Source: Candidatus Woesearchaeota archaeon (GTDB taxonomy: Archaea > Nanobdellota > Nanobdellia > Woesearchaeales > UBA10216). Taken from it: a stretch of DNA of 64,000 bases. Shown one piece after another: positions 4,040-56,235 of the stretch. The translations under genes and the position numbers were made by a program. Below the pieces are notes generated by a model, which saw only the letters and a program-made list of their open reading frames with translations, made no database searches and had not been told where the DNA came from. The stretch spans positions 48,804-112,803 of the forward strand of contig JACPTF010000010.1 in assembly GCA_016192915.1 (NCBI GenBank), given 5' to 3'. Every line of letters begins with the position of its first letter. Position 1 is the stretch's first letter.

Positions 4040-5254
4040 ATGAAAGCAGTAATCCTTGCAGCAGGGAAATCAACGCGGCTGCATCCATTGACTGTAAACA
4101 GGTCAAAGGTGATGCTGCCTGTTGCAAACGAAACTATATTAGAATATGACCTGCAGCAGCTGCAGCAGACGAGACTAATAGATGAAGTTGTCATTGTTGT
4201 CGGATTTGGCAGCGAGGAGATAATCGCACAATTTGGCAACAATTATGGCAGCGGCAAAAGTAAAATTAAACTTGCTTACGCCTTCCAGACAGAGCCGCTC
4301 GGAACAGGGCATGCACTTCTTCAAGCGGAGAAATTCCTCGCTGCAGAGAAGAAATTCCTCGTTATAATGGGAGATGACCTTTACGGTGGCAATGACATTA
4401 AAAAATGCTTAAGGCATGACAGCTGTGTCCTTGCAAAGAAAGTTGAGAATATAAGCAGTTTCGGCAAGGTGGTTGCTGAAAAAGGAATTCTAAAAAAGCT
4501 GGTTGAAAAGCCTGACGAGAAAGGCAGCGGCCTGGCAAATACGGGCTGTTACGTTTTGCCTAACCCAATATTTCAGCTGCTGCGAAAAATGAAGAAAAGC
4601 AGCCGCGGAGAGTTTGAAGTGGTTGATGCAATACGGCAGCTGCAAAACGTGCATGTTGAGGAAGCTGTATTCTGGCAGCCAATCACTTACCCTTGGAGCT
4701 TGCTTGATGCGAATGAGGCTTTACTGAAGCAAAGGGAGAAAGACAAGCCGCAGATAGAAGCGACAGCGAAGATAGAGAGATATGCAACTCTAAAAGGTTT
4801 CGTGGCTGTGGGGAAAAATACGCTCATAAGGAACGGCGCGTACATAGAAGGGCCTGTTGTGATAGGTGAGGATTGCAGGATAGGCCCGAACTGCTACATC
4901 CGCGCTTATACGTCAATTGGTAACGGCTGCAGGATTGGAAACGCTGTTGAAGTCAAGAATGCAATACTTATGGACAATGTTACAATTGGCCATCTCAGCT
5001 ACTGCGCTGATTCTGTTGTGGGCAAAAATGTAAACTTCGGCGCTGGAACAATAACTGCGAATCTTCGCCACGACAACGGCCCTGTGAAGTCAATGGCAAA
5101 AGGCGAGCTGATAAGCACGGAAAGAAGAAAGTTCGGCACCATAATAGGGGATAATGCAAAAACAGGCATCCACACCTCAATCTATCCCGGAAGAAAAATC
5201 TGGCCTGGAAAGGCGACGCTGCCAGGGGAGGCTGTCAGGACTGATGTCACATAG
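4040..5254 (+). CDS. glmU: Bifunctional sugar-1-phosphate nucleotidyltransferase / acetyltransferase (archaeal GlmU-like)
   Basis: N-terminal MKAVILAAGKSTRLHPLT nucleotidyltransferase G-loop. C-terminal left-handed beta-helix hexapeptide repeats (IGxxxxIGxxCxIG...). Confidence 0.75.
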   Translation: MKAVILAAGKSTRLHPLTVNRSKVMLPVANETILEYDLQQLQQTRLIDEVVIVVGFGSEEIIAQFGNNYGSGKSKIKLAYAFQTEPLGTGHALLQAEKFLAAEKKFLVIMGDDLYGGNDIKKCLRHDSCVLAKKVENISSFGKVVAEKGILKKLVEKPDEKGSGLANTGCYVLPNPIFQLLRKMKKSSRGEFEVVDAIRQLQNVHVEEAVFWQPITYPWSLLDANEALLKQREKDKPQIEATAKIERYATLKGFVAVGKNTLIRNGAYIEGPVVIGEDCRIGPNCYIRAYTSIGNGCRIGNAVEVKNAILMDNVTIGHLSYCADSVVGKNVNFGAGTITANLRHDNGPVKSMAKGELISTERRKFGTIIGDNAKTGIHTSIYPGRKIWPGKATLPGEAVRTDVT

Positions 5255-5585
5255 CATCAAAGCCCATTGACTTCAGAATCACCTTTATTTCATCAATAAT
5301 CTTCTGCTGGTCTTTCTTATCTGACATGCGCACAAACTTAACAAGCAGTGTAGCAAGCTCATCATCAGTGCCAAATTTCAAGATGTGCCCATCAGTAATG
5401 AAGTAAAACCGCCACTTCCCGTACTTAAGCTCTTTGATGACTATGCCTGCCACATGCCCCAGTGCTTTCCCCTTATGCGGCTCATGCTCCAATGACTTCA
5501 TCTGAAGAAATATCTTCTCAGATTCCGCTTTGAACCTCTTGAATACTTCCTCCTTTAACGAAGCAGTTATGACGACTTTTGCCAT
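5247..5585 (-). CDS. RelE/ParE-like type II toxin (putative)
   Basis: Small basic protein with GKWRFYFITDGHILKF, resembling the RelE core. Its start overlaps the upstream small gene. Confidence 0.5.
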   Translation of the reverse strand: MAKVVITASLKEEVFKRFKAESEKIFLQMKSLEHEPHKGKALGHVAGIVIKELKYGKWRFYFITDGHILKFGTDDELATLLVKFVRMSDKKDQQKIIDEIKVILKSMGFDAM

Positions 5586-5782
5586 TTTTTTCTCGCTTCC
5601 GCTATGGCTTCATCAATAGTAAGAGAATCTGACTTGTCGTAAAGGTACGTCATCAGTAAATTCCTGTGCGTCATTTCGTACATTCTTCTAATCACGTCTT
5701 CGTAGGAATCTCCGGCTCTCCCCAGATTCCTCAATTTCTCCCTCAAGTCAGATGATATGGATATTGTGGTTGCCATAGGCAT
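5567..5782 (-). CDS. Putative antitoxin (small DNA-binding protein; start trimmed to MPMATT)
   Basis: Lies upstream of and overlapping the RelE-like gene. Motif SYEDVIRRMYE recurs in the antitoxin at 49879..50106. Confidence 0.4.
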   Translation of the reverse strand: MPMATTISISSDLREKLRNLGRAGDSYEDVIRRMYEMTHRNLLMTYLYDKSDSLTIDEAIAEARKKWQKSS

Positions 5783-5879
5783 TATAGAAGTTATGGAGTT
5801 TATATATCTTTTGGTTTCCTGCCGTTGAAGAAACGAATGCAAGACGATTTATTAACCTTTTGTCCTGGTTTAAGCGGCG

Positions 5880-6209
5880 TTACGCCTTTATCCTTATGCT
5901 TATGCCTTCAGGCTCCAGTTGAAGCCTCAGCTTGTCGCCCTTGCCAATCCTGTAAATCTGCTCAGCAATCTTCGGTATCCTGAGTATCTTGCTCTCTCCC
6001 AGAACGCCTACTGTCGCAGTTATGCCTTTATTCTCAGCTTTCATCTTAAAATACTCAAGTATGGGATGTATTGCTCTTTCGTCGTAGATTATCTCCCCGC
6101 ACTTAGGGCATTTCCATCCAGCTATGCTAAAGCCGTGAAAATCATCCTTCACAGACTTCATCTCCCTCTTGCACTTCCAGCAAATCGTCTTCATTTTTAC
6201 TGCGCTCAC
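5880..6209 (-). CDS. Zinc-ribbon plus AbrB/SpoVT-like swapped-hairpin domain protein (antitoxin-like regulator)
   Basis: CWKC...CPKCG zinc ribbon followed by GESKILRIPKIAEQIYRIGKGDKLRLQLEP. Confidence 0.4.
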   Translation of the reverse strand: MSAVKMKTICWKCKREMKSVKDDFHGFSIAGWKCPKCGEIIYDERAIHPILEYFKMKAENKGITATVGVLGESKILRIPKIAEQIYRIGKGDKLRLQLEPEGISIRIKA

Positions 6210-41644: not shown

Positions 41645-41760
41645 AGCCCCTGGCGAGAGTTGAACTCGCGGCCTACTGCTATTTCTTCCTTTTTGGTCAA
41701 GCTTTTTGCTTGCAAAAAGGTTGTACGAAGCAGTCGCTCTGGCCACTGAGCTACAGGGGC
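41645..41760 (-). tRNA. tRNA-Thr(CGT) with a ~43-nt intron at the canonical position
   Basis: Reverse complement reads GCCCCTG-TA-GCTC..GAGC-G-ACTGC-TTCGTA-[intron with hairpin ctttttgc/gcaaaaag]-A-GCAGT-AGGCC-GCGAG-TTCAACT-CTCGC-CAGGGGC-T, followed by TTTT. Confidence 0.7.
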
Positions 41761-41952: not shown

Positions 41953-42602
41953 AAGCACATGTTGCTGATGGCAATTTTATAAATCTTTGCCGCTGCTGTA
42001 AAAAGAGGGGGGCGCCGCAGCCGGGAATCTCATCCGGCTCTGCAGCCAGATTTTGAACCCGGATGAAGTTCGGGAAAACTTCACCAGTTTTTCAAACAGG
42101 CGCAATAACCTGATTCTGCCACCGCGGCAACTCCCATTTTACACTTACCATCAATTCTTGATATGCTTATCGCCTGGATTTACGGAAATTTTACGTCAAA
42201 GTGGTAATTCTTTCCGTCTATTCCGTGAATTTTTTGCATTTTCTGCAATTTGACGGAAATTTTTCCTTTGCCCCGCAATTTTTCTGGCTGTGTTGGGTGT
42301 CCAATAGGGTGCTTTCAAGTTAAGTGGCAAAGCCGACTTTGGTGCTGCGCACTTCCTTTCCCTCCCCTACGCTTAGCGTGGGGAGAGGAAAGCAACCCAA
42401 ATGCAGTTTGGGCAAAGTCGGCAACAAAAGACACCTAACTTGGCATTATCGTCCAATAGAAAAGATTAAATAGTAGAAGAAGGATTCAATAGTCAAGAAG
42501 TTCGGGAAAGCTGAAACATTAATCTGGTTCTGTCTTTTTTCTTTTTTTCGGGTACAGCTTCGGCGAAACTAATAAATACCCGGTTATCTGAGAGCAAAGG
42601 CA

Positions 42603-42911
42603 ATGATTAGCGTCTACATCACCTGCAAGGACATGGCAGAGGCAAAGCTGATAGCTGGCCATCTGCTTGAGAAACGGCTTATAGCCTGCGCCAACATTTT
42701 CCCTGTCACTAGCATGTTCCACTGGGCGGGAAAGGTTGCCAGCGAGCCAGAGGTCTCGATGCTGTGCAAAGCCAAGAAGGAAAGCTTCGCCAGAATAAAG
42801 GAGGAAGTTAGGCAGCTGCACAGCTACGAGATACCCTGCATAGTTGCACTGCCATGGCACGAAAGCGATGAGGAGTACAGGAAGTGGGTTGAGGAGGAGA
42901 CTAAAGCGTGA
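42603..42911 (+). CDS. cutA: Divalent-cation tolerance protein CutA
   Basis: MISVYITC...AEAKLIAGHLLEKRLIACANI is a CutA1 signature. 102 aa. Confidence 0.8.
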   Translation: MISVYITCKDMAEAKLIAGHLLEKRLIACANIFPVTSMFHWAGKVASEPEVSMLCKAKKESFARIKEEVRQLHSYEIPCIVALPWHESDEEYRKWVEEETKA

Positions 42912-42937: not shown

Positions 42938-43693
42938 TCAGCCAGAAGCTGCTTCTGCCGGTCGCACACCAGCTTTTAAATTTGTAGTGTCGTAACCTGC
43001 TATCTCACAAGCCCTTACAAAGTAATTCAAATATGTCCTCTGGCGTGGGTCTTTGCTCATCAGCCCCTTGCCACTAGTGCTGCGGATGTTATCCAAGTTT
43101 CCACTTGCAAGGAGATCTTCTAGATCACCTTCAGTTAAGACTCCGCTGTGTTCAAGCATTCTTATAATCATGCCAGTACTTTGGTGAATAGCTTTTTGAT
43201 CATATTCTGGATGAGCCTCTTTGGCTGCTTGTTCTAGTGGCCCATACAAAAGCTCCTTGATAGGTTTGCCTTTTTCTCCCAAATACTTTTCTAAGCCAAA
43301 ATATGAGCGTGCGTTTTTAATCGGCGCATTTGGATCTACTAGTTCAACAATCTTGGACATACCCTTGGGCCATTCCCTTAAAATCTTTCTTACTTGAGCT
43401 TCGATGCCGTTTCCTCTCTTTGGTTCAAGGCCAACTTCCTCTGCTAACGCAACAGCTTCGCCCACGTCTACTGGTCTTCGGGTTACTCTTTCTAGGAGCC
43501 TCCTCCTGAACACTTCCGCAGCGTACTGGTCTATTGGAACATAGCCTCTAAACACACCGTAATCTATCACGCGCCCTCCGCCATACAACTGACTTTGCCC
43601 GCTCACGCTTGTGCCAGTAGGCTTTTGGCCGACTCCAGAAATATCTGTTTTAACTCTCCGACCATTTTCTTTTTGTTTAGACATTCCAGTCAA
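42938..43693 (-). CDS. Hypothetical protein (251 aa), third gene of the pyrH-downstream operon
   Basis: 4-nt overlap with the upstream 929-aa gene. No motifs recognized. Confidence 0.45.
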   Translation of the reverse strand: MTGMSKQKENGRRVKTDISGVGQKPTGTSVSGQSQLYGGGRVIDYGVFRGYVPIDQYAAEVFRRRLLERVTRRPVDVGEAVALAEEVGLEPKRGNGIEAQVRKILREWPKGMSKIVELVDPNAPIKNARSYFGLEKYLGEKGKPIKELLYGPLEQAAKEAHPEYDQKAIHQSTGMIIRMLEHSGVLTEGDLEDLLASGNLDNIRSTSGKGLMSKDPRQRTYLNYFVRACEIAGYDTTNLKAGVRPAEAASG

Positions 43694-46479
43694 TACCCCA
43701 ACCTAACTAATTCTCTACTCGGGAGTGCACCATTCTTTATAAATTTTGCTTTGGGATTGGATTTCACAGTTTCATGAGTTACTTCTGTCCCTGCATACTC
43801 AACTACTTTTTTCCGCTGCCCTGCCCTGTCGATTAAGGCATACCAGTCGCGCACCGTTCCTACCCGTTGCAAAAACCAATACAAACGATTATCGCTTCGC
43901 AGCCTTATGAACTCCGGATTCAGCACCCAAAGGTCGTCAATGGCTTCTGGCTTCATTGGCATGCTCAGTGAGCCTATACGAATAGTTACCGCGCGCTGAC
44001 CTGTCATATATCTTTCCATCACACTTAGTGCAGGCAAAACATCGTCATAAGAGACTGGCCTGCCGTAGCGCTGCGCAATGAGCGGATGCTTGCCAACCTC
44101 GTTAATTATTTCCTCTACGCTTGGGTCATGGTCGCGGCTTCCTGTTTGCTTCTCCTTTTCCAAGTCGCGGGTGTAATGCCTTACGATATTCATCATCAGG
44201 CGGCTAAACAGGATATCCGGCACTGCCGGCTCAGTACCTTTTTCACGTCCATTACCCTCCGAGTGGGTAAAGTGGCTATACCCCACAAAAGCGAGGCCAC
44301 TGATTTCAGGGCCGAGGCGCCTTGCCTCGCCATTGGGCAGGATTCTGGGAATAACCCCTGCCATGTAAAGGAAAACCCCGAGCTTGTAAGCCAGAATAAC
44401 CCTTTCCTTCGGCGAGTTTGCCAGCAAAGCATCCTTCTTTGAGAAAAACATGTAGCAAAACTCTTCAACCCCCTGCTGAAGCCCGTACGTTGACAGAGCC
44501 TCTTCAACTACTGCCTCAAGCCCGGTCCCTTTGAAAGCTTTGCTCGAGCCATACGAGCCAGCAGCCCATTCCTGCCTTCTGTCAGCAACTACCAGGCTTC
44601 CGCTTCTGTTAATGATTAGATGCAGGGCATAAGCCGGATTGGACCAATCCAAATGTTTCCTTTCGCTGTAGAACTCGAGCAGTGCAGAAACTGAGTCAAG
44701 TTTTTTTGGCCCTGTTCTGCCTATCAGGACAATGTTGTTGTGAGTTAATCTGTCCAGCCCTCTCCTTGCAAAATAGTCCCTTTGCTGTCCCTTTTGCTGC
44801 AGCAGATGGTTCAGTATTCTTAATTGCTCTTCCCTTCTGTCCGCCTGCTCAGCCTCCCTGTAACCTGGCAATGCGTAAAGCGCGTCTTCTATTGCTTCAA
44901 CTGCTAGCTGTGACGATTTCTCACCCCTCTGCCAAATGTCCTTTTCTGTAATCCTCCATGCTGCCACATAGGTTGGCTGTGTCCTATTGAACCAGTCTAG
45001 ACCCATATTTTCGCTATAGAATTCCAGAACTGCTTTAGGCGACTGCCCTTTTCTGATACCAGCTCTGCCTTTAGTGTCCACAAATCTTTGCATCAAGCCT
45101 GATAGTCCTGCTTTCTCAAAAAAGTCTGTCAGTGCCGTATGCAGTATTAGCTGATTAACTATTCTGACTTGCTCTTCACGGTTGCCCGAGTCTTCAGCCT
45201 GCCTGAAGCCTGGTAGTGTGCGCAGAACGTCTTGTATCGCTTCCAAGGCAAGCTGGACAGACTCCTCACCCCTTTGCCACTTATATCTTTCTCGAATCTT
45301 CCATCCGGGCACATAGGTTAGCTGTGTCCTGTCAAACCAGCCTAAGCCTTTCTGCTTGTTGTAGAATTCAAGGACAGCCCTAGGAGAGTATTCCTTTTTT
45401 ATCCCCTCTTTCCCAGTTACGTCCACAAAACTGCTCATTAACCAATTCAATCCGCGCGAGGAGAAATAGTCTGTTAGACTCGGTGTTTGCTCTATTAGTT
45501 CTGTAATAATTCTAACCTGCTCAGCTCGGTTGCTGGTTTCTTCTGCATCCCTGTAGCCAGGTTGGGTATATAGAACTTCCTGAATTGCGTTCAGAGCAGT
45601 CTGGACAGACGCTTGCCCACTTTTCCACTTAGGTATCTGAGGAATTTTGTGAAGCAGTTCAGGATTTATTGATTTCACAATCCCGCTTATCCCGTGGCTT
45701 CTTTCCAGAAGGGTCCTGAGGCCAAGCAGCTTTAACCTTTTTTCCAGGGAGGGCATTCCTGCACTGGAAGCTACTCTTAATATTCTTTGCACTATGGGCA
45801 TGCTGGTTTCATCTAAAGCAACCATAGGGCTAGGCAACCCACGCCCATGGCCCGCTATGCGTAGCCTTTGATACTCTTGAAACTCAGCGTAAAGCTTTCT
45901 CGCTTCTGGCGGAAGAGTGCCTAACCATCCAATGGTTTGACTAAGCATACTCCTATCCGAGATGTCCTCAGGGGTCAGGTCTGTGCTGCCTAAAATGCTG
46001 GCAAGATTACCAGTGTCACCAAGCGTGTCAACCAAGAACTGGAACTTTTCCTCTGGTAAGCTTTGCCTAATTATGCTCAAAAGCCTCTCTCCCTTAGCTT
46101 CAGCTGCCTTAAGCTCGACTTCTGTTCGCTCTTCAGGGGCGGCCAGAACTTGTTCAAGGGTAAATCCTGTGTCAGTCAAAGGAGCGTTTAACGACACAGG
46201 CTCCCATTCTCTTCCTAGACGGTAATTATCTAAAATTTCGCCTAATGTTTGCTGTAGCCGTTCAGCAGTCGGCAAGCCAAACCGCCTTCTGTTTTGACTT
46301 GCAACGTTGCGCGCTAATTGGGTAAGCCTTTCCCTTTCATTTGAATCATCAATAAGCAAGCCGTAATACTGGCCAATAAACTTTTCTTCCTCTTGCTCGG
46401 ATAACACTCCTGTTTCAGCAGGCAGTGTAGTAGATAGTGCAGTTCTGCTCGCAGCTTCCATGCTGTTATTTAGAAGCAT
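43690..46479 (-). CDS. Large hypothetical protein (929 aa) with three internal ~110-aa tandem repeats
   Basis: Each repeat follows W(K/Q)xG(Q/E)xSxQxALxAIxxVLxxxPGxRxAE..NRxEQVRI...AVLEFY...W..RTQxTYV. The repeats are also visible at the nucleotide level (~44.9-45.7 kb). Confidence 0.5.
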   Translation of the reverse strand: MLLNNSMEAASRTALSTTLPAETGVLSEQEEEKFIGQYYGLLIDDSNERERLTQLARNVASQNRRRFGLPTAERLQQTLGEILDNYRLGREWEPVSLNAPLTDTGFTLEQVLAAPEERTEVELKAAEAKGERLLSIIRQSLPEEKFQFLVDTLGDTGNLASILGSTDLTPEDISDRSMLSQTIGWLGTLPPEARKLYAEFQEYQRLRIAGHGRGLPSPMVALDETSMPIVQRILRVASSAGMPSLEKRLKLLGLRTLLERSHGISGIVKSINPELLHKIPQIPKWKSGQASVQTALNAIQEVLYTQPGYRDAEETSNRAEQVRIITELIEQTPSLTDYFSSRGLNWLMSSFVDVTGKEGIKKEYSPRAVLEFYNKQKGLGWFDRTQLTYVPGWKIRERYKWQRGEESVQLALEAIQDVLRTLPGFRQAEDSGNREEQVRIVNQLILHTALTDFFEKAGLSGLMQRFVDTKGRAGIRKGQSPKAVLEFYSENMGLDWFNRTQPTYVAAWRITEKDIWQRGEKSSQLAVEAIEDALYALPGYREAEQADRREEQLRILNHLLQQKGQQRDYFARRGLDRLTHNNIVLIGRTGPKKLDSVSALLEFYSERKHLDWSNPAYALHLIINRSGSLVVADRRQEWAAGSYGSSKAFKGTGLEAVVEEALSTYGLQQGVEEFCYMFFSKKDALLANSPKERVILAYKLGVFLYMAGVIPRILPNGEARRLGPEISGLAFVGYSHFTHSEGNGREKGTEPAVPDILFSRLMMNIVRHYTRDLEKEKQTGSRDHDPSVEEIINEVGKHPLIAQRYGRPVSYDDVLPALSVMERYMTGQRAVTIRIGSLSMPMKPEAIDDLWVLNPEFIRLRSDNRLYWFLQRVGTVRDWYALIDRAGQRKKVVEYAGTEVTHETVKSNPKAKFIKNGALPSRELVRLGY
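44880..45700 (-). repeat. Three tandem ~330-bp intragenic repeats inside the 929-aa gene (approximate span)
   Basis: Recurrent strings such as ...ctcacccct(c/t)tgccaaatgtcc.../...ctcacccctttgccacttatatc... and ...cacataggtt(g/a)gctgtgtcct... Confidence 0.5.
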
Positions 46480-46502
46480 AGCGCAGTTAAAAAAGCTTTC
46501 TT

Positions 46503-48146
46503 CTAAGCAGCACCAACAGCTTTCATGGGAGCCTCCCCAACAGCTGCACTGGCGTAAGGGCTTATGTCGCGCCTGGTCTGGGCTTTTCCGTGATAAGCTA
46601 CTGCTTTTGGCCGTGCAAATTCTTGCTCCACAATGTCCCAGTAGCCTTCGTCAAAAAGTCCTCTCCGCGCCCAGAGCTGGTGGTAAGTGCGCTTTAGCAC
46701 AGGGTCTGCGGCTCTTGACTGGGGCCTTAAAACTTCAAGATTTTCTCCAGGCCCTAATAACACTTTTTCGCCATTGCGCACAAAACGAAACCTGCCAACC
46801 ACCCTTGGCCTCAGGTACTCCTTCAACTGGTGCACAACTAGCAGGCAATAGACCTGCTCTGGCGTAGTGCAGCCGAGCTTGTCTACAACGCCTTCATCAG
46901 AAAGAACCTTAGCCATCAGCTCTGCAGGCGAGAGCCCCCTGTGCTGCTCATAACGCGTCCTTGCCCTTCTGAAGACTGGAATAAGCTCCTCAGCGCACAA
47001 TTCGGTGTTCCTGAAAGAATCTCCAATAAAACCAATGGCCATGTAAAGGTCCTCCCTCTCTTTGAAGCGCCTCCTCCTACCCTTATAAGTCACTGGCACC
47101 TTTCCAAGCACAATAGCCTTAAGCAGCACGTAATCGTCATCTTCGTTTGGTTTGCCCATAATTATGCGGTGATTGAGCTGTATGCTGTGGAACGCTTCAA
47201 CGTCAGCAAGCCTGCCTGCGAGGTCTTGGTATTCTATCCAGCTTTTACCACCATTTTTTTCGCTATAAGTTACTGCACTCAGCAAGTCCTTTAACGAAAT
47301 GTCTCTGCCCTTCTCTATGTTAACCCTACGCAGCAGCTCGAGATTTTTAAGTGGCTCAATGAAAACCAAACCAGCTTCTGTTTCTACGGGCCTCTCACCA
47401 GCCAGGTACTGCCTCAGACGCTCAACAATATACCTGTCAAAGTTGTAGCGAGTTTCCATGAAGTACCTGAAAGATTCTACCGGCCGATACTTACTCATAA
47501 GCGGTTGGAACTTAAGCACTTGCCCGACCAAGTCTGTCCAGAGGGGGCCGCCAGCTCCAATCTCCCTGATATGCCTCTGCGAAACTCTCCACACCAGGCT
47601 GTAAAAGCGCGAATCCTCCCTTCTCTCAACTTCCTCACCACCCAAGCTGGCACTTGCAATGCTCATCAGCTTGAGTGCCTCTGAATTATTCAGGCGTATT
47701 TTTTCGCCGTTTACTATGCGCGGAAGCCAGCCGAGTAAGTAAAACACAACGTATAGCTCGTCGATGACCCCATTAGGAGTTACTTGCCTGTAAAGATTAT
47801 CATGCTGGCCGCCCTCGTGCAGCTGCGGCAGTCGCCAATTCAAATATTCGAATATTCTCCTGTGAGGCGCGCGCTTTTTATGGAACAGAGTGGCAGTAGT
47901 CGCAAGAAGTTGTAAAGAATCACTTTGCAGCCCTTTCTCCGGGTCAGTGAGCCTTATCGCACTTTCCACCACCTTATAAAGCGCAGAGCCCCTTCCTAAT
48001 TGTTCGTATTCGCTGACCAACCCCTCAACAACATCCTCAAGCGCCACAACTGCTGTTGGCGGATTCGGTTTTAAATATTTTGCCAGAAAGTCAGGACTAA
48101 GAAATAACAGTGCCCTTAAAACCCTTGCCATCCAAGAAGCTTTCAA
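46503..48146 (-). CDS. Large hypothetical protein (547 aa), first gene after pyrH
   Basis: 24-nt gap to the 929-aa gene. The 5' end overlaps the pyrH 3' end. No motifs recognized. Confidence 0.45.
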   Translation of the reverse strand: MKASWMARVLRALLFLSPDFLAKYLKPNPPTAVVALEDVVEGLVSEYEQLGRGSALYKVVESAIRLTDPEKGLQSDSLQLLATTATLFHKKRAPHRRIFEYLNWRLPQLHEGGQHDNLYRQVTPNGVIDELYVVFYLLGWLPRIVNGEKIRLNNSEALKLMSIASASLGGEEVERREDSRFYSLVWRVSQRHIREIGAGGPLWTDLVGQVLKFQPLMSKYRPVESFRYFMETRYNFDRYIVERLRQYLAGERPVETEAGLVFIEPLKNLELLRRVNIEKGRDISLKDLLSAVTYSEKNGGKSWIEYQDLAGRLADVEAFHSIQLNHRIIMGKPNEDDDYVLLKAIVLGKVPVTYKGRRRRFKEREDLYMAIGFIGDSFRNTELCAEELIPVFRRARTRYEQHRGLSPAELMAKVLSDEGVVDKLGCTTPEQVYCLLVVHQLKEYLRPRVVGRFRFVRNGEKVLLGPGENLEVLRPQSRAADPVLKRTYHQLWARRGLFDEGYWDIVEQEFARPKAVAYHGKAQTRRDISPYASAAVGEAPMKAVGAA

Positions 48147-48780
48147 GGTTGTGCAAGTCCTTGCCCATCACCGCAACTCTCAGCTTCAGCTTCTCAGCGA
48201 CCTTCGCAGCAACAGGGTCAAATGGCGTGTTAAGGCCAGGACTCCACTTTGTGATGCCTGTCAGCCTGCGGAAATCCTTCCACCTTATCATACGCAGCGG
48301 CTTTGCATCATGAAACTTTGACGGATCCTTGTCATAGACAAAGTCAGTGTTGGTGATGTTAATGACTGTTTTCGCCCCAAGGTTCTTTGCCAGAAGCACA
48401 GCAATGTAGTCAGTTGAGCGACCAGGCTTCCAGCCGGCAGCAACCACAACCCTCTCTGAGCCCTTCAGCCTGATTTTTTCATTGGGGTTCTTTATAACTT
48501 TAGCATGAGCCAGCCCCCTGAAAATAGTCCTAATCAGGTGAGCGTTCAGCCTTGTGGCGTGTATGCCGAGCCAGTCAAGGTCCTCAGGAACAGCGTGCAC
48601 GACCCTTGATGCCGCGCCCTGGTACTCCCTGGCAGTCTTGCCGCCGCCGCAGACGATTGCAAACCTGCGGCCATCACGCACAAACCTGAGAATCAGCTGC
48701 CGGAACCGCTGCAGGAAATCAACGTCTATCTGGTTAGGGGCTAGCACCGAGCCGCCAAGTGAAATAATTATAGTTTCCAT
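48097..48780 (-). CDS. pyrH: Uridylate (UMP) kinase, archaeal type (amino-acid-kinase fold)
   Basis: METIIISLGGSVL..VCGGG.. amino-acid-kinase family motifs. Start trimmed to METII. Confidence 0.7.
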   Translation of the reverse strand: METIIISLGGSVLAPNQIDVDFLQRFRQLILRFVRDGRRFAIVCGGGKTAREYQGAASRVVHAVPEDLDWLGIHATRLNAHLIRTIFRGLAHAKVIKNPNEKIRLKGSERVVVAAGWKPGRSTDYIAVLLAKNLGAKTVINITNTDFVYDKDPSKFHDAKPLRMIRWKDFRRLTGITKWSPGLNTPFDPVAAKVAEKLKLRVAVMGKDLHNLESFLDGKGFKGTVIS

Positions 48781-49094
48781 CAAGAAGATTATTCTCACTG
48801 AGCAGGTTATAAATCTTTTGGAATGGAAAAAGAAAGAAAAGGCAGAATCCGATACCTGCCTTGCGACGCCCACCCGTCAATATTTCGTTATTAACACTAG
48901 CTGATATTTAAAACTTTTGATTTCCGAATTTATTGCCGTGAAAATCTTTCATTTTATCCATAGAATGTCCGGAAAATCTTCATCTTTTCGCAAGATTTCG
49001 GGTTGTTACTGAGTATCTTACAACATTTCCAAAAACTTTTCAGCTTTTCTGGGGCAAAGGTTATCAAAACTTAAAAAGCAGTAGTGTTGGGACT

Positions 49095-49363: not shown

Positions 49364-49493
49364 GCGTCGGTGGTCTAACGGCATGACCTCAGCCTTCCAC
49401 ACAACCTTCTTTGGTGCGGCAAAGAAGCTTGACCAAGAAATCCACAGGTTGTAAAGAAAGCTGATGGTCCGGGTTCAATTCCCGGCCGACGCA
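49364..49493 (+). tRNA. tRNA-Gly(TCC) with a ~57-nt intron at or near the canonical position
   Basis: GCGTCGG-TG-GTC..GAC-C-TCAGC-CTTCCA-[intron with ACAACCT/AGGTTGT and cttctttg/caaagaag helices]-GCTGA-TGGT-CCGGG-TTCAATT-CCCGG-CCGACGC-A. Confidence 0.7.
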
Positions 49494-49499
49494 CTTCAA

Positions 49500-49877
49500 T
49501 TAAGGTTCCACTCTTTTTATTTCCAAGCCGTCAAAGTCCTTGTCGTAGGAGATAAATTCTGAGCAGTTGTTCACCAATGCTGTAGCGTAGTTAATCAAAT
49601 CAAACGTATTAAGATTGTATTTCTCAGCTCGCTTTAAGCTTTCAAAAAGCAGGTTTCTGTCCAACGGTACTATTAACGCATGAGTCTTAAGCAGCGCCTT
49701 AATGCAAACCCAGGCATACGTTTTGTCCTTTTTGATTTTGGCAATTCTGTACTGTGCTTCAACGAGGCAAAGGGTATTGGTAACGAAATCTTCGTACAAC
49801 ATACTCTGGCACTTATCCTTATCGGCGTTTTCCGTAAAGGCCTTTACTAGAACATTAGCATCTACAAACTTTGCCAT
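49500..49877 (-). CDS. vapC: PIN-domain protein (VapC-like toxin)
   Basis: MAKFVDANVLV...ISYDKDF with PIN acidic residues. 125 aa. Confidence 0.6.
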   Translation of the reverse strand: MAKFVDANVLVKAFTENADKDKCQSMLYEDFVTNTLCLVEAQYRIAKIKKDKTYAWVCIKALLKTHALIVPLDRNLLFESLKRAEKYNLNTFDLINYATALVNNCSEFISYDKDFDGLEIKRVEP

Positions 49878-52410: not shown

Positions 52411-55400
52411 TTAAACGACCTCAACCTCTTTTCTCCTGATGGCCTTTTTCAGCCACTCGCTCCACTCGAAGAGGATGCGCTTGTTGTCGTATGAGCCCAG
52501 CTCATCCTTTACCTCCTCAGCCAACTTGTGGAACTCGTCATTCGCCTGCACGACAAAAGGCGCTTCAAGCAGCTCATTCTGGCCTGTCTTATCAGCAGCA
52601 TCCACCACGGCCTCCTTAATCTGGGCACGGAGCAGGACGTTGTCCCAGACAGCGTCCCAGCTTCCGGCCCAGTCCTTCACATTCGCCGCAATGGACTTCA
52701 GGACATCACTTTCGCCATTAAGCAAGTCAATGGTTGGCTCGAGCTGGTCTGACTTTGAATCGTACTTCATCAGGTCCTTGAAGCCCTTCTCCAGCAGCGG
52801 GTCATTCTCCCAGTATTTTCCCACCTCAGTAATCTGGGTTAACCTGCGCCAGCGGTGAAGCCCGTCAGGGGTCCTAATCGGATTAGCAACAACAATGACA
52901 TCGGTTGCCTTGAATGATGTCCTGGGCACCCTTAAGTCGTTAACGACCCTGTCGAAAACACCGTAAGGGCTGTCGCCGTGAATGGTGCCTGCAACGACAT
53001 TGGCAAGAGCTCCCACTCTCATGGCCTCGTAAAGTGCAGCAGCCTCAACCGACCTCACCTCACCGATGATTAGGCAGCTGTCGCCCATTCTAAGAGTTGA
53101 CCTTATGCCCTCGTCAGCGGAAACTTCTGTAGTGCCCTTTGTCAGTGCCGAAGCAACTTTCATTGACTGGATGTTGTAGTTAAGCTGCTTCAGTGCTGCA
53201 ACAGGTAATTCTAGAGTGTTGTGAGCTACAATATTATCGCAGACAAAGCTCTCGCATTCAGGTACAGATAGGTCGTATACCCAGCCATCATGTTCTTGCA
53301 TTGAAATTTCCCTGACTTCATCCCAAAATATGTCAGATTGTGCCAGAATTGAAAGGTTCTCAGACAACTCACATGGCAATTGATTTGTTTGCAGTATGCT
53401 AACAAGCCTGGTTTGCCCTATGTCGTTATCTCTAATCACATAGTCATGAAAGTTAAATTTTGGAATCATATCCCATAAATCCTCTTTTGTTCCAAGTGAT
53501 AGCGGGATTATGTCTGTTGTATCGTGCGTGCTTGTTTTGCTGCACAATAAGTCAACTTTCTGGTTTTTATAATGCTGCAAGAAGCCAATATTATCCCTGA
53601 AATTCTTCCATGATTTCAATGAACTTATGCCCGCATTGTAGGTGCCATCACTTCTTTTCTTGCCAATCCTGAAAACTATGTCATATGCGGATAAAAGAAA
53701 TTGTATGTCTTTTAGCAAGGCGGCTGAGGCCATCGGAATTACAATCTCCTTATCCGCAGCGCAGCCATCACCAGTGAAAATACCGTTAAGCACAAAGGCA
53801 ATCTGCTCCCTGGATAATTGATAAATCCATGCGGGCAGACGCTTGGTGTAGGAATTACCTTTCAGCTCAAATAGCTCTGCCATGCAAGCTTTGAGGGTTT
53901 TAGAATTAAGCTGGAGTGAAAATCCGTCAGAATGCATCTTTACCGGTATTCCGAATTTCTTCCCTACACTATGCACCACTGCTCTATCCTCTTCGTCAAC
54001 AGCAGAGATGATTACTGACATTTGGTCGTAGCAACCATCCGCTATCCATAACCCCACAAATGTAAGAAACTCCTTATCAAGCGACATTTTGGCAGGCAAA
54101 GAAAAAGTCGAACGCCTGCCCACCTTAAAAAAGATTTTTCCATCACCAATCCGATAACCTGCAGAGATTAGTTTCCCCACAATCTTGCCTGGAAGCATCC
54201 CTTTCCTTATCCAATATTGAATAACCTGTTTTCCATAGCCTTGTTTCTCTCCAAGCTTTTTGATATCTGCCCTATGCTGCTGTGCAAAATTCATGACTGC
54301 CTCTCCAAAGATATAGCTTTCTTCAAGCCCTAAAATCTTGGGAAGTAAATCGATTTCTGGCAGCTCCTTGTTGGCAAGTTCAATATGTCTGGGCACAGAA
54401 ATGTGGCTGCCTGGTTGAAGCTCCTTTACCTTGGCTTCTTCTATTTGGCCAGTTTCACCTACAGTAAACAGAGAATGGTCGCCTGTAACCCTAATTGTCC
54501 TGCCTGTTCTTGTCTTCACAGTGAATAGCGGCTTGTTTACCTTATGTCTTATGAAATTACTGACTCTGCTAAGAACAATCTTGCCTTGCTTATCCATGGC
54601 GTATATCTCAATTTTTTCTGGATTTCCGGCCACTTCGTGGTCTGAAAGGTTGTAATAGCTTCCGTGCTTGGTTATATTGCTATCCACAAGTTCTCCTATG
54701 GTTGTTCGCTCATAGGTGCCATTTCGCCTAATAATGAGTTCACTATCGCCAGCAACGCTATCCTCTAGTGAGATCATACGATATTTCCTCATTATCTCAA
54801 CCATGACGGAGCCGAGCACTGATGTTTTTCCGGCAGACCTTGTGCCGGCAACGAGCATTGTCCTGGAGCCGTCAATGAGGAAGCTGAGAAGCCCTGCTGA
54901 AAGGGGAGTCATCATCCTCTGCTTTATGAAGAGGGGAAAGGTCCACGGCTTGTCCCTGTGCCGACGGAAAGCATAAGCAAGGCCGTTTGGGTTCAGGGGC
55001 TCACCGACGACGGCTACCCTTGCCCTGGCTCCCGGAACAAGCAGCTCTGTGTCCAGTATTGGATTGGCCTCGTCCAAAGGCCTTCCGGACATCAGCCTCA
55101 GCTTGGTAGCCCAGGAATCAGCATCGCTCGAAGTGGGAATAATGTTTGTCATGCAATCATCATAATCCTGGTGCACGATAAAGAGCGGCTGCCTTCCCAT
55201 GGGGCTGTTGGCTGTTATGTCCTGGATTTTATCGTCCTTGAGCAAGACCTCAACAAGGCCAAATCCGATAGTATACCTGACAAGCACTTCAGCGAGCTCC
55301 TCAACCTCCTTAGTGCGGAGCTTGAGCTGCTTCTGGTCAGCGAGCTCCTCAATTAAATCGCTGCCTACGTTAAAGAACACCTGCCTGACCCTTTCAGGGT

Positions 55401-56235
55401 CAATGAACTCGCTTCTTGTTGGCTTATGCTCTGAGATCACCCTTTTGGCCAAATCGAGAAGCTCATACTTGTCTTCGGTAAGCTTGAATTCCGGAGGCAC
55501 AACATGGTAAAGGTACTGGACCGTAGAGGGAAGCTTGAACAAGGTAATGTCAGCCCCCTCAACAGTGTAGCTGTCAATTTCCTCGCCATCCTGTGGGAAG
55601 GCAGCCATGAGCCTGGTGAACATGAAATCAGGCTTTGCAAGAGGGTTAAAGACAAAATGATAAATGCCCCTGTTGCCTTCCTTGTAATCCTGCAGGTGAG
55701 GCTTTGCCTTCAGCATCAGCTCGGTTTTTTCAAGCGCGTTAAGAAGCGACTCAACAAGCTGAAGGTATCTGTCAGCTCCGGCAGCCTGCTGGGCAGCCCT
55801 TTCACTGGCAACCTTTTCCTCACGGTGCATCCTGCGAAGCTCAACATAAGCTGCAACAGGGTCATTCCTTAGCTTGTTGTAAACTATGTTCCTTATCTCA
55901 TAACTGCGCCTCTCCCCACTTGGGCCGGTAAAAACGCCGCCGAGCGAGGAAAGCGTAAAAAGAACCTGCTGCTTGATTATCTGATTGCGAAGCTTGCCTA
56001 TCTCTGCAAGCATCCTGACCTGCCCATAATCGTACTCGTAATCCCTTTTTTGCGCAAAGACAACCCGGGTAATGCTTGGGTTTTCAACCAGCTTGTCAAT
56101 AACGGCAGACATGCAAACAGTGCTGTCCTCGATTGAAGGGAAAAAGGGGAAGGCCTCTGCATCTATTCTTAAGACTAGGTCCTCGCCCTCCTTGTACGTC
56201 TCGTAACTAAAATAGTCCCCTCTTTTTTCAGGCAT
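52411..56235 (-). CDS. FlaI/VirB11/PilB-family secretion ATPase interrupted by a 514-aa intein
   Basis: Walker A AGTRSAGKTS. The host motif ISLED|TLELPV is split by an insert that begins with S, ends with HN, and carries LAGLIDADG blocks (LTFVGLWIADGCYD, AFVLNGIFTGDGCA). The C-terminal extein has the ATPase His/Asp boxes. Confidence 0.85.
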   Translation of the reverse strand: MPEKRGDYFSYETYKEGEDLVLRIDAEAFPFFPSIEDSTVCMSAVIDKLVENPSITRVVFAQKRDYEYDYGQVRMLAEIGKLRNQIIKQQVLFTLSSLGGVFTGPSGERRSYEIRNIVYNKLRNDPVAAYVELRRMHREEKVASERAAQQAAGADRYLQLVESLLNALEKTELMLKAKPHLQDYKEGNRGIYHFVFNPLAKPDFMFTRLMAAFPQDGEEIDSYTVEGADITLFKLPSTVQYLYHVVPPEFKLTEDKYELLDLAKRVISEHKPTRSEFIDPERVRQVFFNVGSDLIEELADQKQLKLRTKEVEELAEVLVRYTIGFGLVEVLLKDDKIQDITANSPMGRQPLFIVHQDYDDCMTNIIPTSSDADSWATKLRLMSGRPLDEANPILDTELLVPGARARVAVVGEPLNPNGLAYAFRRHRDKPWTFPLFIKQRMMTPLSAGLLSFLIDGSRTMLVAGTRSAGKTSVLGSVMVEIMRKYRMISLEDSVAGDSELIIRRNGTYERTTIGELVDSNITKHGSYYNLSDHEVAGNPEKIEIYAMDKQGKIVLSRVSNFIRHKVNKPLFTVKTRTGRTIRVTGDHSLFTVGETGQIEEAKVKELQPGSHISVPRHIELANKELPEIDLLPKILGLEESYIFGEAVMNFAQQHRADIKKLGEKQGYGKQVIQYWIRKGMLPGKIVGKLISAGYRIGDGKIFFKVGRRSTFSLPAKMSLDKEFLTFVGLWIADGCYDQMSVIISAVDEEDRAVVHSVGKKFGIPVKMHSDGFSLQLNSKTLKACMAELFELKGNSYTKRLPAWIYQLSREQIAFVLNGIFTGDGCAADKEIVIPMASAALLKDIQFLLSAYDIVFRIGKKRSDGTYNAGISSLKSWKNFRDNIGFLQHYKNQKVDLLCSKTSTHDTTDIIPLSLGTKEDLWDMIPKFNFHDYVIRDNDIGQTRLVSILQTNQLPCELSENLSILAQSDIFWDEVREISMQEHDGWVYDLSVPECESFVCDNIVAHNTLELPVAALKQLNYNIQSMKVASALTKGTTEVSADEGIRSTLRMGDSCLIIGEVRSVEAAALYEAMRVGALANVVAGTIHGDSPYGVFDRVVNDLRVPRTSFKATDVIVVANPIRTPDGLHRWRRLTQITEVGKYWENDPLLEKGFKDLMKYDSKSDQLEPTIDLLNGESDVLKSIAANVKDWAGSWDAVWDNVLLRAQIKEAVVDAADKTGQNELLEAPFVVQANDEFHKLAEEVKDELGSYDNKRILFEWSEWLKKAIRRKEVEVV
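53218..54759 (-). mobile_element. Intein (with LAGLIDADG homing-endonuclease domain) within the FlaI-like ATPase gene
   Basis: N-terminal Ser, C-terminal VAHN followed by +1 Thr. Two dodecapeptide motifs. Removing it restores the contiguous P-loop ATPase motif ...RMISLEDTLELPV... Confidence 0.75.

Follow-up and report, generated by a model that had tools for sequence, protein, structure and literature searches.

A three-gene block beside pyrH in a Woesearchaeota genome, and the DPANN repeat-protein family, sigma-70-type members included, to which its central protein belongs

What is the role of three large genes that stand beside pyrH in a Woesearchaeota genome and have no match to a known family? 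The genes lie in a 64,000-nucleotide (nt) stretch, the window, of contig JACPTF010000010.1 from Candidatus Woesearchaeota archaeon (assembly GCA_016192915.1), where they follow pyrH on the minus strand as open reading frames (ORFs) of 547, 929 and 251 amino acids (aa). The initial annotation took them for a lineage-specific block of no known family and without standard motifs, and direct searches agree on the first point: none of the three proteins has a match in Pfam, NCBIfam, PHROGs, PADLOC or PDB sequences. The lack of motifs holds for the window sequence alone and does not extend to relatives of the 929-aa protein that were found by profile. Because domains of sigma-70 regions 2 and 4 are found in these relatives, the family points to transcription, and the reading that we put first, with about an even chance of being right, is that of a transcription-associated scaffold of sigma origin for the 929-aa protein, probably degenerate ('pseudo-sigma') and with clade-specific partners.

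The family was defined by a profile (A1) of the N-terminus and repeats, with which an exhaustive hidden Markov model (HMM) search of 1.84 billion representative proteins was made. Only 72 clusters were matched, and the named members are Woese- or Pacearchaeota. Judged from these matches, the family is small and restricted to the tiny, symbiotic DPANN archaea, with a ~95-aa adaptor that is followed by one to four or more ~115-aa repeats predicted to be all-helical. The 929-aa protein contains the adaptor (99% probability) and three repeats and is a member of this family.

One branch of the family, which we call type A, bears sigma domains. Pfam Sigma70_r2 and/or Sigma70_r4 is matched in P0018, P0025, P0026, P0034, P0036, P0037, P0038, P0040 and P0044, and the matches lie immediately N-terminal to the shared adaptor-repeat region. 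At least one sigma domain reaches the gathering cut-off in P0018, P0025, P0026, P0034 and P0044. For Sigma70_r2 (PF04542), P0018 and P0025 are above the cut-off and P0026, P0036 and P0044 are sub-threshold, as are the region 4 matches of P0036, P0037, P0038 and P0040. Two more proteins, P0031 and P0046, match the type-A profile, and one type-A member is annotated by IMG as 'RNA polymerase sigma factor (sigma-70 family)'. The type-A N-terminal profile matches the solved sigma factors WhiG, FliA, SigA, RpoS and RpoD with E-values down to 5.6e-18, and by this comparison of sequences the type-A members are genuine sigma-70-type factors with regions 2 and 4. Their loci are archaeal and syntenic in L016, L017 and L018, where the gene order is aIF5B (IF-2) ... 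gene - rpS6e ... aIF2-gamma and the proteins are less than 50% identical across the three genomes.

Additional sigma-like sequences were noticed at the type-A loci. L016 encodes a 606-aa protein (4149-5969) with two sigma-like modules that match the type-A profile at aa 44-336 and 410-578, and L018 encodes a 195-aa Sigma70_r4 protein (1453-2040); since these extra genes adjoin the sigma-plus-repeat gene, DPANN sigma-like genes occur in clusters. In P0044 (L018 6001-7986) the repeats are followed, at the C-terminus, by a second helix-turn-helix that resembles sigma region 4 (aa 588-634). The aIF5B gene of L018 contains an intein with LAGLIDADG.

How does the window protein relate to these sigma factors? 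Its own branch, type B, is represented here by 16 sequences, and hhalign aligned the type-B profile (A5) collinearly with that of type A (A7) at 99% probability and E 4e-19. With the adaptor included, this alignment sets residues ~125-175 of the 929-aa protein on sigma region 4. The adaptor occupies aa ~191-284 (45628-45909, minus strand) and is common to all family members; the repeat profile matches it at E 0.004, and it is apparently a degenerate half-repeat. Ahead of the adaptor lies an N-terminal module (aa ~25-190; 45910-46407, minus strand) that is highly diverged and is not sigma by sequence, but is predicted to have a fold of the type sigma2 - flexible linker - sigma4. A structure model of aa 1-516, which was built with 15 homologues and has a mean predicted local distance difference test score (pLDDT) of 82.7, contains three helices (28-87), a ~30-residue low-confidence linker and four or five short helices (120-187). 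In the model, the helix layout and size of aa 28-187 correspond to the sigma2-linker-sigma4 arrangement seen in sigma factors of the extracytoplasmic function (ECF) type. Foldseek independently aligned whole ECF sigma factors over 165-190 columns and lists SigH, SigL and HrdB among its top matches, with none significant alone, and cross-profile matches between type A and type B are marginal but collinear (E 0.009-0.04 with a 75-sequence set).

Several observations weigh against this sigma-derived reading. The 929-aa protein has no sequence match to sigma in Pfam, NCBIfam or PDB. PF04542 and PF04545 are matched neither by it nor by any of the 16 type-B N-termini, and per-member scans of the N-termini against Pfam and NCBIfam gave scattered single matches only. 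When the adaptor is left out, the hhalign comparison of type A with type B falls to a non-significant E of 0.15, and the best PDB match of the type-B N-terminal profile is CheA P1 at E 0.016, which is at chance level. The placing of the Foldseek sigma matches on aa 25-190 is an inference from helix layout and alignment lengths, and the predicted structures cover the 929-aa protein alone among the three. As a putative recognition helix, 'LTPEDISDR' differs in its acidic character from a sigma4 helix that binds the -35 element; should the module be of sigma origin, classical reading of -35 DNA has probably been lost. To our knowledge, archaeal RNA polymerase (RNAP) does not use sigma factors. 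The adaptor-plus-repeat core is also present in all-repeat proteins without a sigma-like part (P0070, P0075), and a related genome has lost most parts of the block by deletion, as described below. By sequence, then, the type-B N-terminus is not sigma-like; by predicted structure, it probably is.

Because all-repeat proteins exist, the N-termini could be unrelated domains that were shuffled onto a mobile repeat module. If that is the case, the adaptor and repeats form an independent module for binding protein or nucleic acid, and the 929-aa protein would be a scaffold unrelated to transcription. This is the main rival explanation, and we hold it to be somewhat unlikely. It accounts for the lack of significant similarity between the N-termini of the two types when they are compared without the adaptor, for all-repeat relatives without the sigma part (P0070, P0075 and P0079), for the sub-threshold structural matches and for CheA P1 as the best match of the type-B profile. 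Beside these points stand the collinearity of the two types and the modelled helix layout, with which a sigma origin of the head of the 929-aa protein is consistent.

The initial annotation had recognized three consecutive repeats in the 929-aa protein, and these were recovered as tandem units of ~115 aa with per-unit HMM E-values from 1e-58 to 1e-66; such units are also found in six homologues. Repeat 1 spans aa 285-400 (45280-45627; HMM E 7e-66; model pLDDT >90), repeat 2 spans aa 401-515 (44935-45279) and repeat 3 spans aa 516-625 (44605-44934), all on the minus strand. The repeats were also said to be recent and still recognizable as DNA repeats, a claim that did not survive. Amino acid identity is 56% between repeats 1 and 2, 46% between repeats 2 and 3, and 38% between repeats 1 and 3. 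At the DNA level only repeats 1 and 2 align (67% over 492 nt; nucleotide identity 64-67%), and neither Tandem Repeats Finder nor an exact-seed repeat finder detected a DNA repeat. Synonymous sites between the repeats are saturated, with a proportion of synonymous differences (pS) of 0.64-0.93 and a synonymous divergence (dS) of at least 1.4. Positional orthologues in a related genome are far closer for repeats 2 and 3 (dS 0.48 and 0.78); repeat 2 is the positional orthologue of repeat 1 in L009, from which it differs by a dS of 0.48 versus 1.77 from repeat 1 of the window itself. Repeat 3 is of the terminal type, which forms a separate orthologous group across three genomes; the orthologues of repeat 3 are the final repeat in P0002 and the sole one in P0003, with amino acid identities of 68% and 57%, respectively, versus 38-46% to repeats 1 and 2. 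Two or three repeats are already present in homologues at 30-45% identity. Copy number differs between lineages (1 in P0003, 3 in the window protein and 4 in P0013), differences which on these divergences are read as old gain and loss rather than recent expansion, the repeats predating the species splits.

The repeat unit is predicted to be all-helical, with five helices each (pLDDT >90), and follows the consensus W..GE.S..AL.AI..VL...PGY..AE..GNR.EQV.II...YF...GL..LM...D..G..G.KK..SP.A.LEFYS...L.WF. A profile of 17 units matched no Pfam or PDB family, and its best PDB match, HspBP1 at 0.4, is at chance level. As far as we have found, the 115-aa helical unit appears to be previously undescribed and is neither a tetratricopeptide repeat (TPR) nor WD40. 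The FFLEELY-motif family was considered as a home for the repeats and rejected as a chance match, because only 1 of the 17 units matched it. The very distant all-repeat proteins P0070, P0075 and P0079 share the pattern W...AL...PG(F/Y)..A...GL.GL...SP..LE.F.

The homing-endonuclease-associated repeat, HNH_repeat (PF18780), consists of tandem helical units in which a conserved Trp comes first and an 'AL' helix is present, and the 115-aa units are alike in each of these respects. It is possible that the 929-aa protein is a selfish, homing-endonuclease-related DNA-binding repeat protein whose repeats are distant PF18780 units, and that the block is what is left of a mobile element that inserted between pyrH and cutA, close to tRNA genes. 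P0079 comes close to the HNH_repeat cut-off (25.4 bits; cut-off 26), P0070 has a weak LAGLIDADG_2 match, close genomes differ in whether they have kept or deleted the block, and there are tRNA genes within 1 kb on each side. We nonetheless regard this explanation as highly improbable. The 115-aa unit is twice as long as that of HNH_repeat, and none of the 17 units matches that family at E-values up to 1. Domain scans found no nuclease, integrase or transposase within or adjoining the block. In scans for further loci, genome contigs yielded no additional one, metagenome contigs yielded one short contig and viral contigs none; the GC content across the block is 0.47-0.49, matching the rest of the window. 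The three genes are under purifying selection, with a ratio of nonsynonymous to synonymous divergence (dN/dS) of ~0.2 in comparison with the orthologues of two other genomes, and the same genes flank the block in three genomes. Because of this selection, the three ORFs are real genes.

The C-terminal domain of the 929-aa protein (aa 626-929; 43690-44604, minus strand) is found only in the closest relatives, P0002 and P0003. It is predicted with low confidence (pLDDT <50) to be mixed alpha/beta and has no PDB or Pfam match, profile search included. A full-length AlphaFold model was set aside: its C-terminal third was poor (pLDDT <50), and Foldseek returned generic alpha-solenoids only. This domain contains the string EGNGR, in which a hint of Fic had been seen. 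The region reads FTHSEGNGREKG, with H and F misplaced for a Fic motif, and in the two closest orthologues the EGNGR position reads FTHLERRGRKKD (ERRGR) and FTHNNGKNVEIE (NNGKN). The 929-aa protein contains no Fic/Doc motif HxFx(D/E)GNGRxxR and has no Pfam Fic match, and the hint can be dropped.

Least credible of all is the initial suggestion of a three-gene toxin/effector, defence or surface-binding system: the block is lineage-specific, modular and variable in content, and a PIN-domain gene lies ~700 nt upstream of pyrH, but PHROG and PADLOC matches are at chance level only (in PADLOC-DB the 929-aa protein matches DruC alone, at E 0.011 over 37 residues, and the 547- and 251-aa proteins match nothing), the three proteins have no enzymatic or catalytic motifs, signal peptides or transmembrane or hydrophobic segments, EGNGR is not conserved, no relatives were found on viral contigs, the GC content is normal, and the relatives bear transcription-factor domains instead.

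The products of the two neighbouring genes are taken to be clade-specific partners of the 929-aa protein. The three are soluble proteins with a basic pI of 8.1-9.2, and no paralogues of them were found elsewhere in the window. The 547-aa protein is clade-specific, with only three homologues, and its family has no Pfam or PDB match even when a profile is used. Its residues ~131-334 are weakly paralogous to the C-terminus of the 929-aa protein (hhalign E 3.5e-5, probability 72%), a similarity supported by BLAST at E 4e-7 against the L001 orthologue, and comparison of the family with sigma profiles by hhalign gave nothing (E 0.086). In the 251-aa protein, a ~200-aa domain is joined to an N-terminus that is basic and looks disordered; hhalign found no similarity of its family to the repeats, the adaptor, the 547 family, the C-terminus of the 929-aa protein or sigma profiles.

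Strong evidence for a partnership comes from the sister genome L001 (GCA_053532715.1), which has conserved the order pyrH - 509 aa - 1138 aa - cutA (convergent). The 1138-aa protein, P0003, is a 929-like protein with one repeat that is fused in frame to two tandem 251-like domains (42% and 33% identity to the 251-aa protein). By virtue of this 'Rosetta stone' fusion, the 929-aa and 251-aa proteins therefore appear to work together. The 547-like and 929-like genes are adjacent in three genomes, namely that of the window, L001 and L010, in which a short contig carries a 547-like gene followed directly by a 929-like N-terminus. In L009 (GCA_016180085.1), pyrH is followed directly by a 929-like gene that is truncated, without the N-terminus and first repeat, and has a higher dN/dS of 0.44; 547-like and 251-like genes are absent. 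The block can thus be lost and is dispensable, and the deletion in L009 is the further point against the sigma-derived scaffold that was mentioned above. Matches to pyrH in L009 (2630-3291) fall in two reading frames and were not called as a gene; this pyrH is either frameshifted or decaying, or reflects an assembly error beside the deletion. The distant family members P0005 and P0007 have unrelated neighbours, mostly membrane proteins, and no 547 or 251 partners. The linkage of the three genes that was originally proposed therefore stands within one small Woesearchaeota clade, to which the set is confined, and does not extend to distant relatives; by its profile matches, the 929-type protein itself is part of a wider family than the three-gene set.

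The layout of the locus is largely as the initial annotation had it. The four genes are arranged pyrH -> 547 aa -> 929 aa -> 251 aa on the minus strand, the long ORFs extending over 48097-48873, 46503-48146, 43690-46479 and 42938-43693, respectively, with 23 nt between the 547- and 929-aa ORFs and a -4 overlap between the 929- and 251-aa ORFs, given a TTG start for the latter. The ORFs have the lengths originally listed, and two of the proteins are probably shorter when judged by the starts of homologues. Since homologues of the 547-aa ORF begin in the alignment at 'MALEDVVEG', its true start is probably GTG 48047, 49 nt past the pyrH stop, which yields 514 aa (46503-48047, minus strand). The 251-aa gene is called in at least five independent assemblies from ATG 43684, 5 nt past the 929 stop, which yields 248 aa (42938-43684, minus strand); the alternative TTG 43693 would produce the 4-nt overlap. 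In the same assemblies (at least five) the 929- and 248-aa proteins are encoded by separate genes. For the 929-aa ORF there is an identical GenBank entry, 'hypothetical protein HYY73_03350 [Candidatus Woesearchaeota archaeon]', and the GenBank version (P0001) begins at the second ATG. The upstream neighbour pyrH encodes an archaeal UMP kinase (48097-48780, minus strand; TIGR02076 pyrH_arch, 3.1e-62); the match begins at aa 35 of the long ORF, the start is ATG 48780 rather than that of the long ORF, and the gene is a housekeeping neighbour outside the module. Downstream, the convergent gene for CutA1 (42603-42911, plus strand; PF03091, 8.5e-33) occupies the same place in L001 and L009 and forms a conserved boundary of the block.

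Transcription of all four genes as one unit, which the initial annotation considered almost certain, is doubtful; clear coupling is seen only from the 929-aa to the 251-aa gene. A/T-rich, TATA-like elements lie ~28-32 nt upstream of the starts of pyrH, the 514-aa gene and the 929-aa gene (second ATG). By what is generally known of archaeal promoters, such elements may be promoters. The element AAAATATTTAAAA (48069-48081, minus strand), read from the sequence ~28 nt upstream of the GTG of the 514-aa gene, is possibly that gene's own promoter. Between the 514- and 929-aa genes a T-rich element, CTTTTTTAAC (46486-46495, minus strand), could be a TATA-like promoter for ATG 46461 or else an oligo-T terminator.

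Other genes near the block are typically archaeal and include, besides the archaeal-type pyrH, TFE-alpha and a FlaI/T2SSE-type ATPase. The latter is a 1274-aa secretion ATPase (52411-56235, minus strand) that is split by a LAGLIDADG intein (Intein_splicing 1e-25, LAGLIDADG_3 1e-9); its L001 orthologue has 760 aa and the T2SSE domain only. A stand-alone PIN-domain (VapC-like) gene (49500-49877, minus strand) is located between the secretion-system genes and pyrH, a position that in L001 is taken by an ORF of 134 aa and by a DUF5678 protein. Three over-long tRNA genes bracket the pyrH-to-cutA block, at 41645-41760 (minus strand, 116 nt), 42036-42128 (minus strand, 93 nt) and 49364-49493 (plus strand, 130 nt); Rfam finds two of them and ARAGORN a different one, tRNA-Phe, and they are presumably intron-containing archaeal tRNAs. 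Because the tRNA at 41645-41760 overlaps its 5' end, the long PfkB-kinase ORF probably has the wrong TTG start.

By what mechanism might the 929-aa protein act? Speculatively, its sigma-like head may dock on RNAP or DNA, and the repeat array may serve as an in-cis regulatory or partner-binding extension by analogy with that of ECF42 and ECF57. The C-terminal domain and the 514-aa and 248-aa proteins would then be clade-specific partners, probably in one complex. A regulatory role of the 929-aa protein through binding of RNAP or DNA is likewise speculative and drawn by analogy. A broader proposal, which we judge distinctly unlikely, is that DPANN archaea domesticated a bacterial sigma factor into a class of RNAP-associated factors with a sigma2/sigma4 head and repeats that read DNA or sense a partner, and that the window trio is an evolved pseudo-sigma complex acting on archaeal or host-cell transcription. 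If true, sigma-type regulation would be known from Archaea for the first time, and sigma control would gain a new repeat fold. Contact of sigma-like proteins with archaeal RNAP can be tested with constructs of the sigma-like head, of the repeats and of the two partners (514 and 248 aa), and two false leads, a recent repeat expansion and a Fic-like toxin, have been removed.

Transcription initiation in archaea employs TBP, TFB and TFE. Against this background, the sigma-70 genes of DPANN archaea are an unexplained anomaly of a 2021 report, which found such genes prevalent in Woesearchaeota and found no anti-sigma factors (Castelle et al. 2021, Front Microbiol, PMC8204110; fam00359). The genes described here are from the same lineages, the type-A members have Sigma70_r2/r4, and an anti-sigma partner is again missing; the window protein differs in having lost every sigma sequence signature. 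The passage of PMC8204110 considered makes no mention of an adaptor-plus-repeat extension, of an extra C-terminal domain or of either partner gene. DPANN sigma-70-like proteins are thus known; as far as we have found, no description exists of their repeat extension or of the cryptic type-B branch with its partners. At least part of the DPANN sigma genes carry the conserved adaptor-plus-repeat extension, which is a candidate built-in regulator, and the type-A genes occupy a stable housekeeping neighbourhood (aIF5B, rpS6e, aIF2-gamma) in Pacearchaeota-type genomes. The larger sister branch, type B, which includes the 929-aa protein, is annotated as hypothetical everywhere because of its extreme divergence.

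Close parallels are also known from bacteria. In ECF42 and ECF57, C-terminal extensions bearing TPR and WD40-like repeats, respectively, replace anti-sigma factors, and partner proteins that are encoded adjacently or fused are proposed to act through the extension (PMC8999054). ECF42 genes also have a conserved neighbour with a YCII domain. The parallel is an analogy only, since no TPR or YCII match was found in the 929-aa protein or its neighbours. The repeats here are 115-aa helical units rather than TPR or WD40, the host is an archaeon, and the sigma domains of type A score best against group-3-type (FliA, WhiG) and primary (SigA, RpoD) factors rather than against those of the ECF type. What the systems share is a sigma2-sigma4 head, in type B a predicted one, followed by a long repeat extension, the absence of an anti-sigma factor, and a small partner that adjoins the gene or is fused to it.

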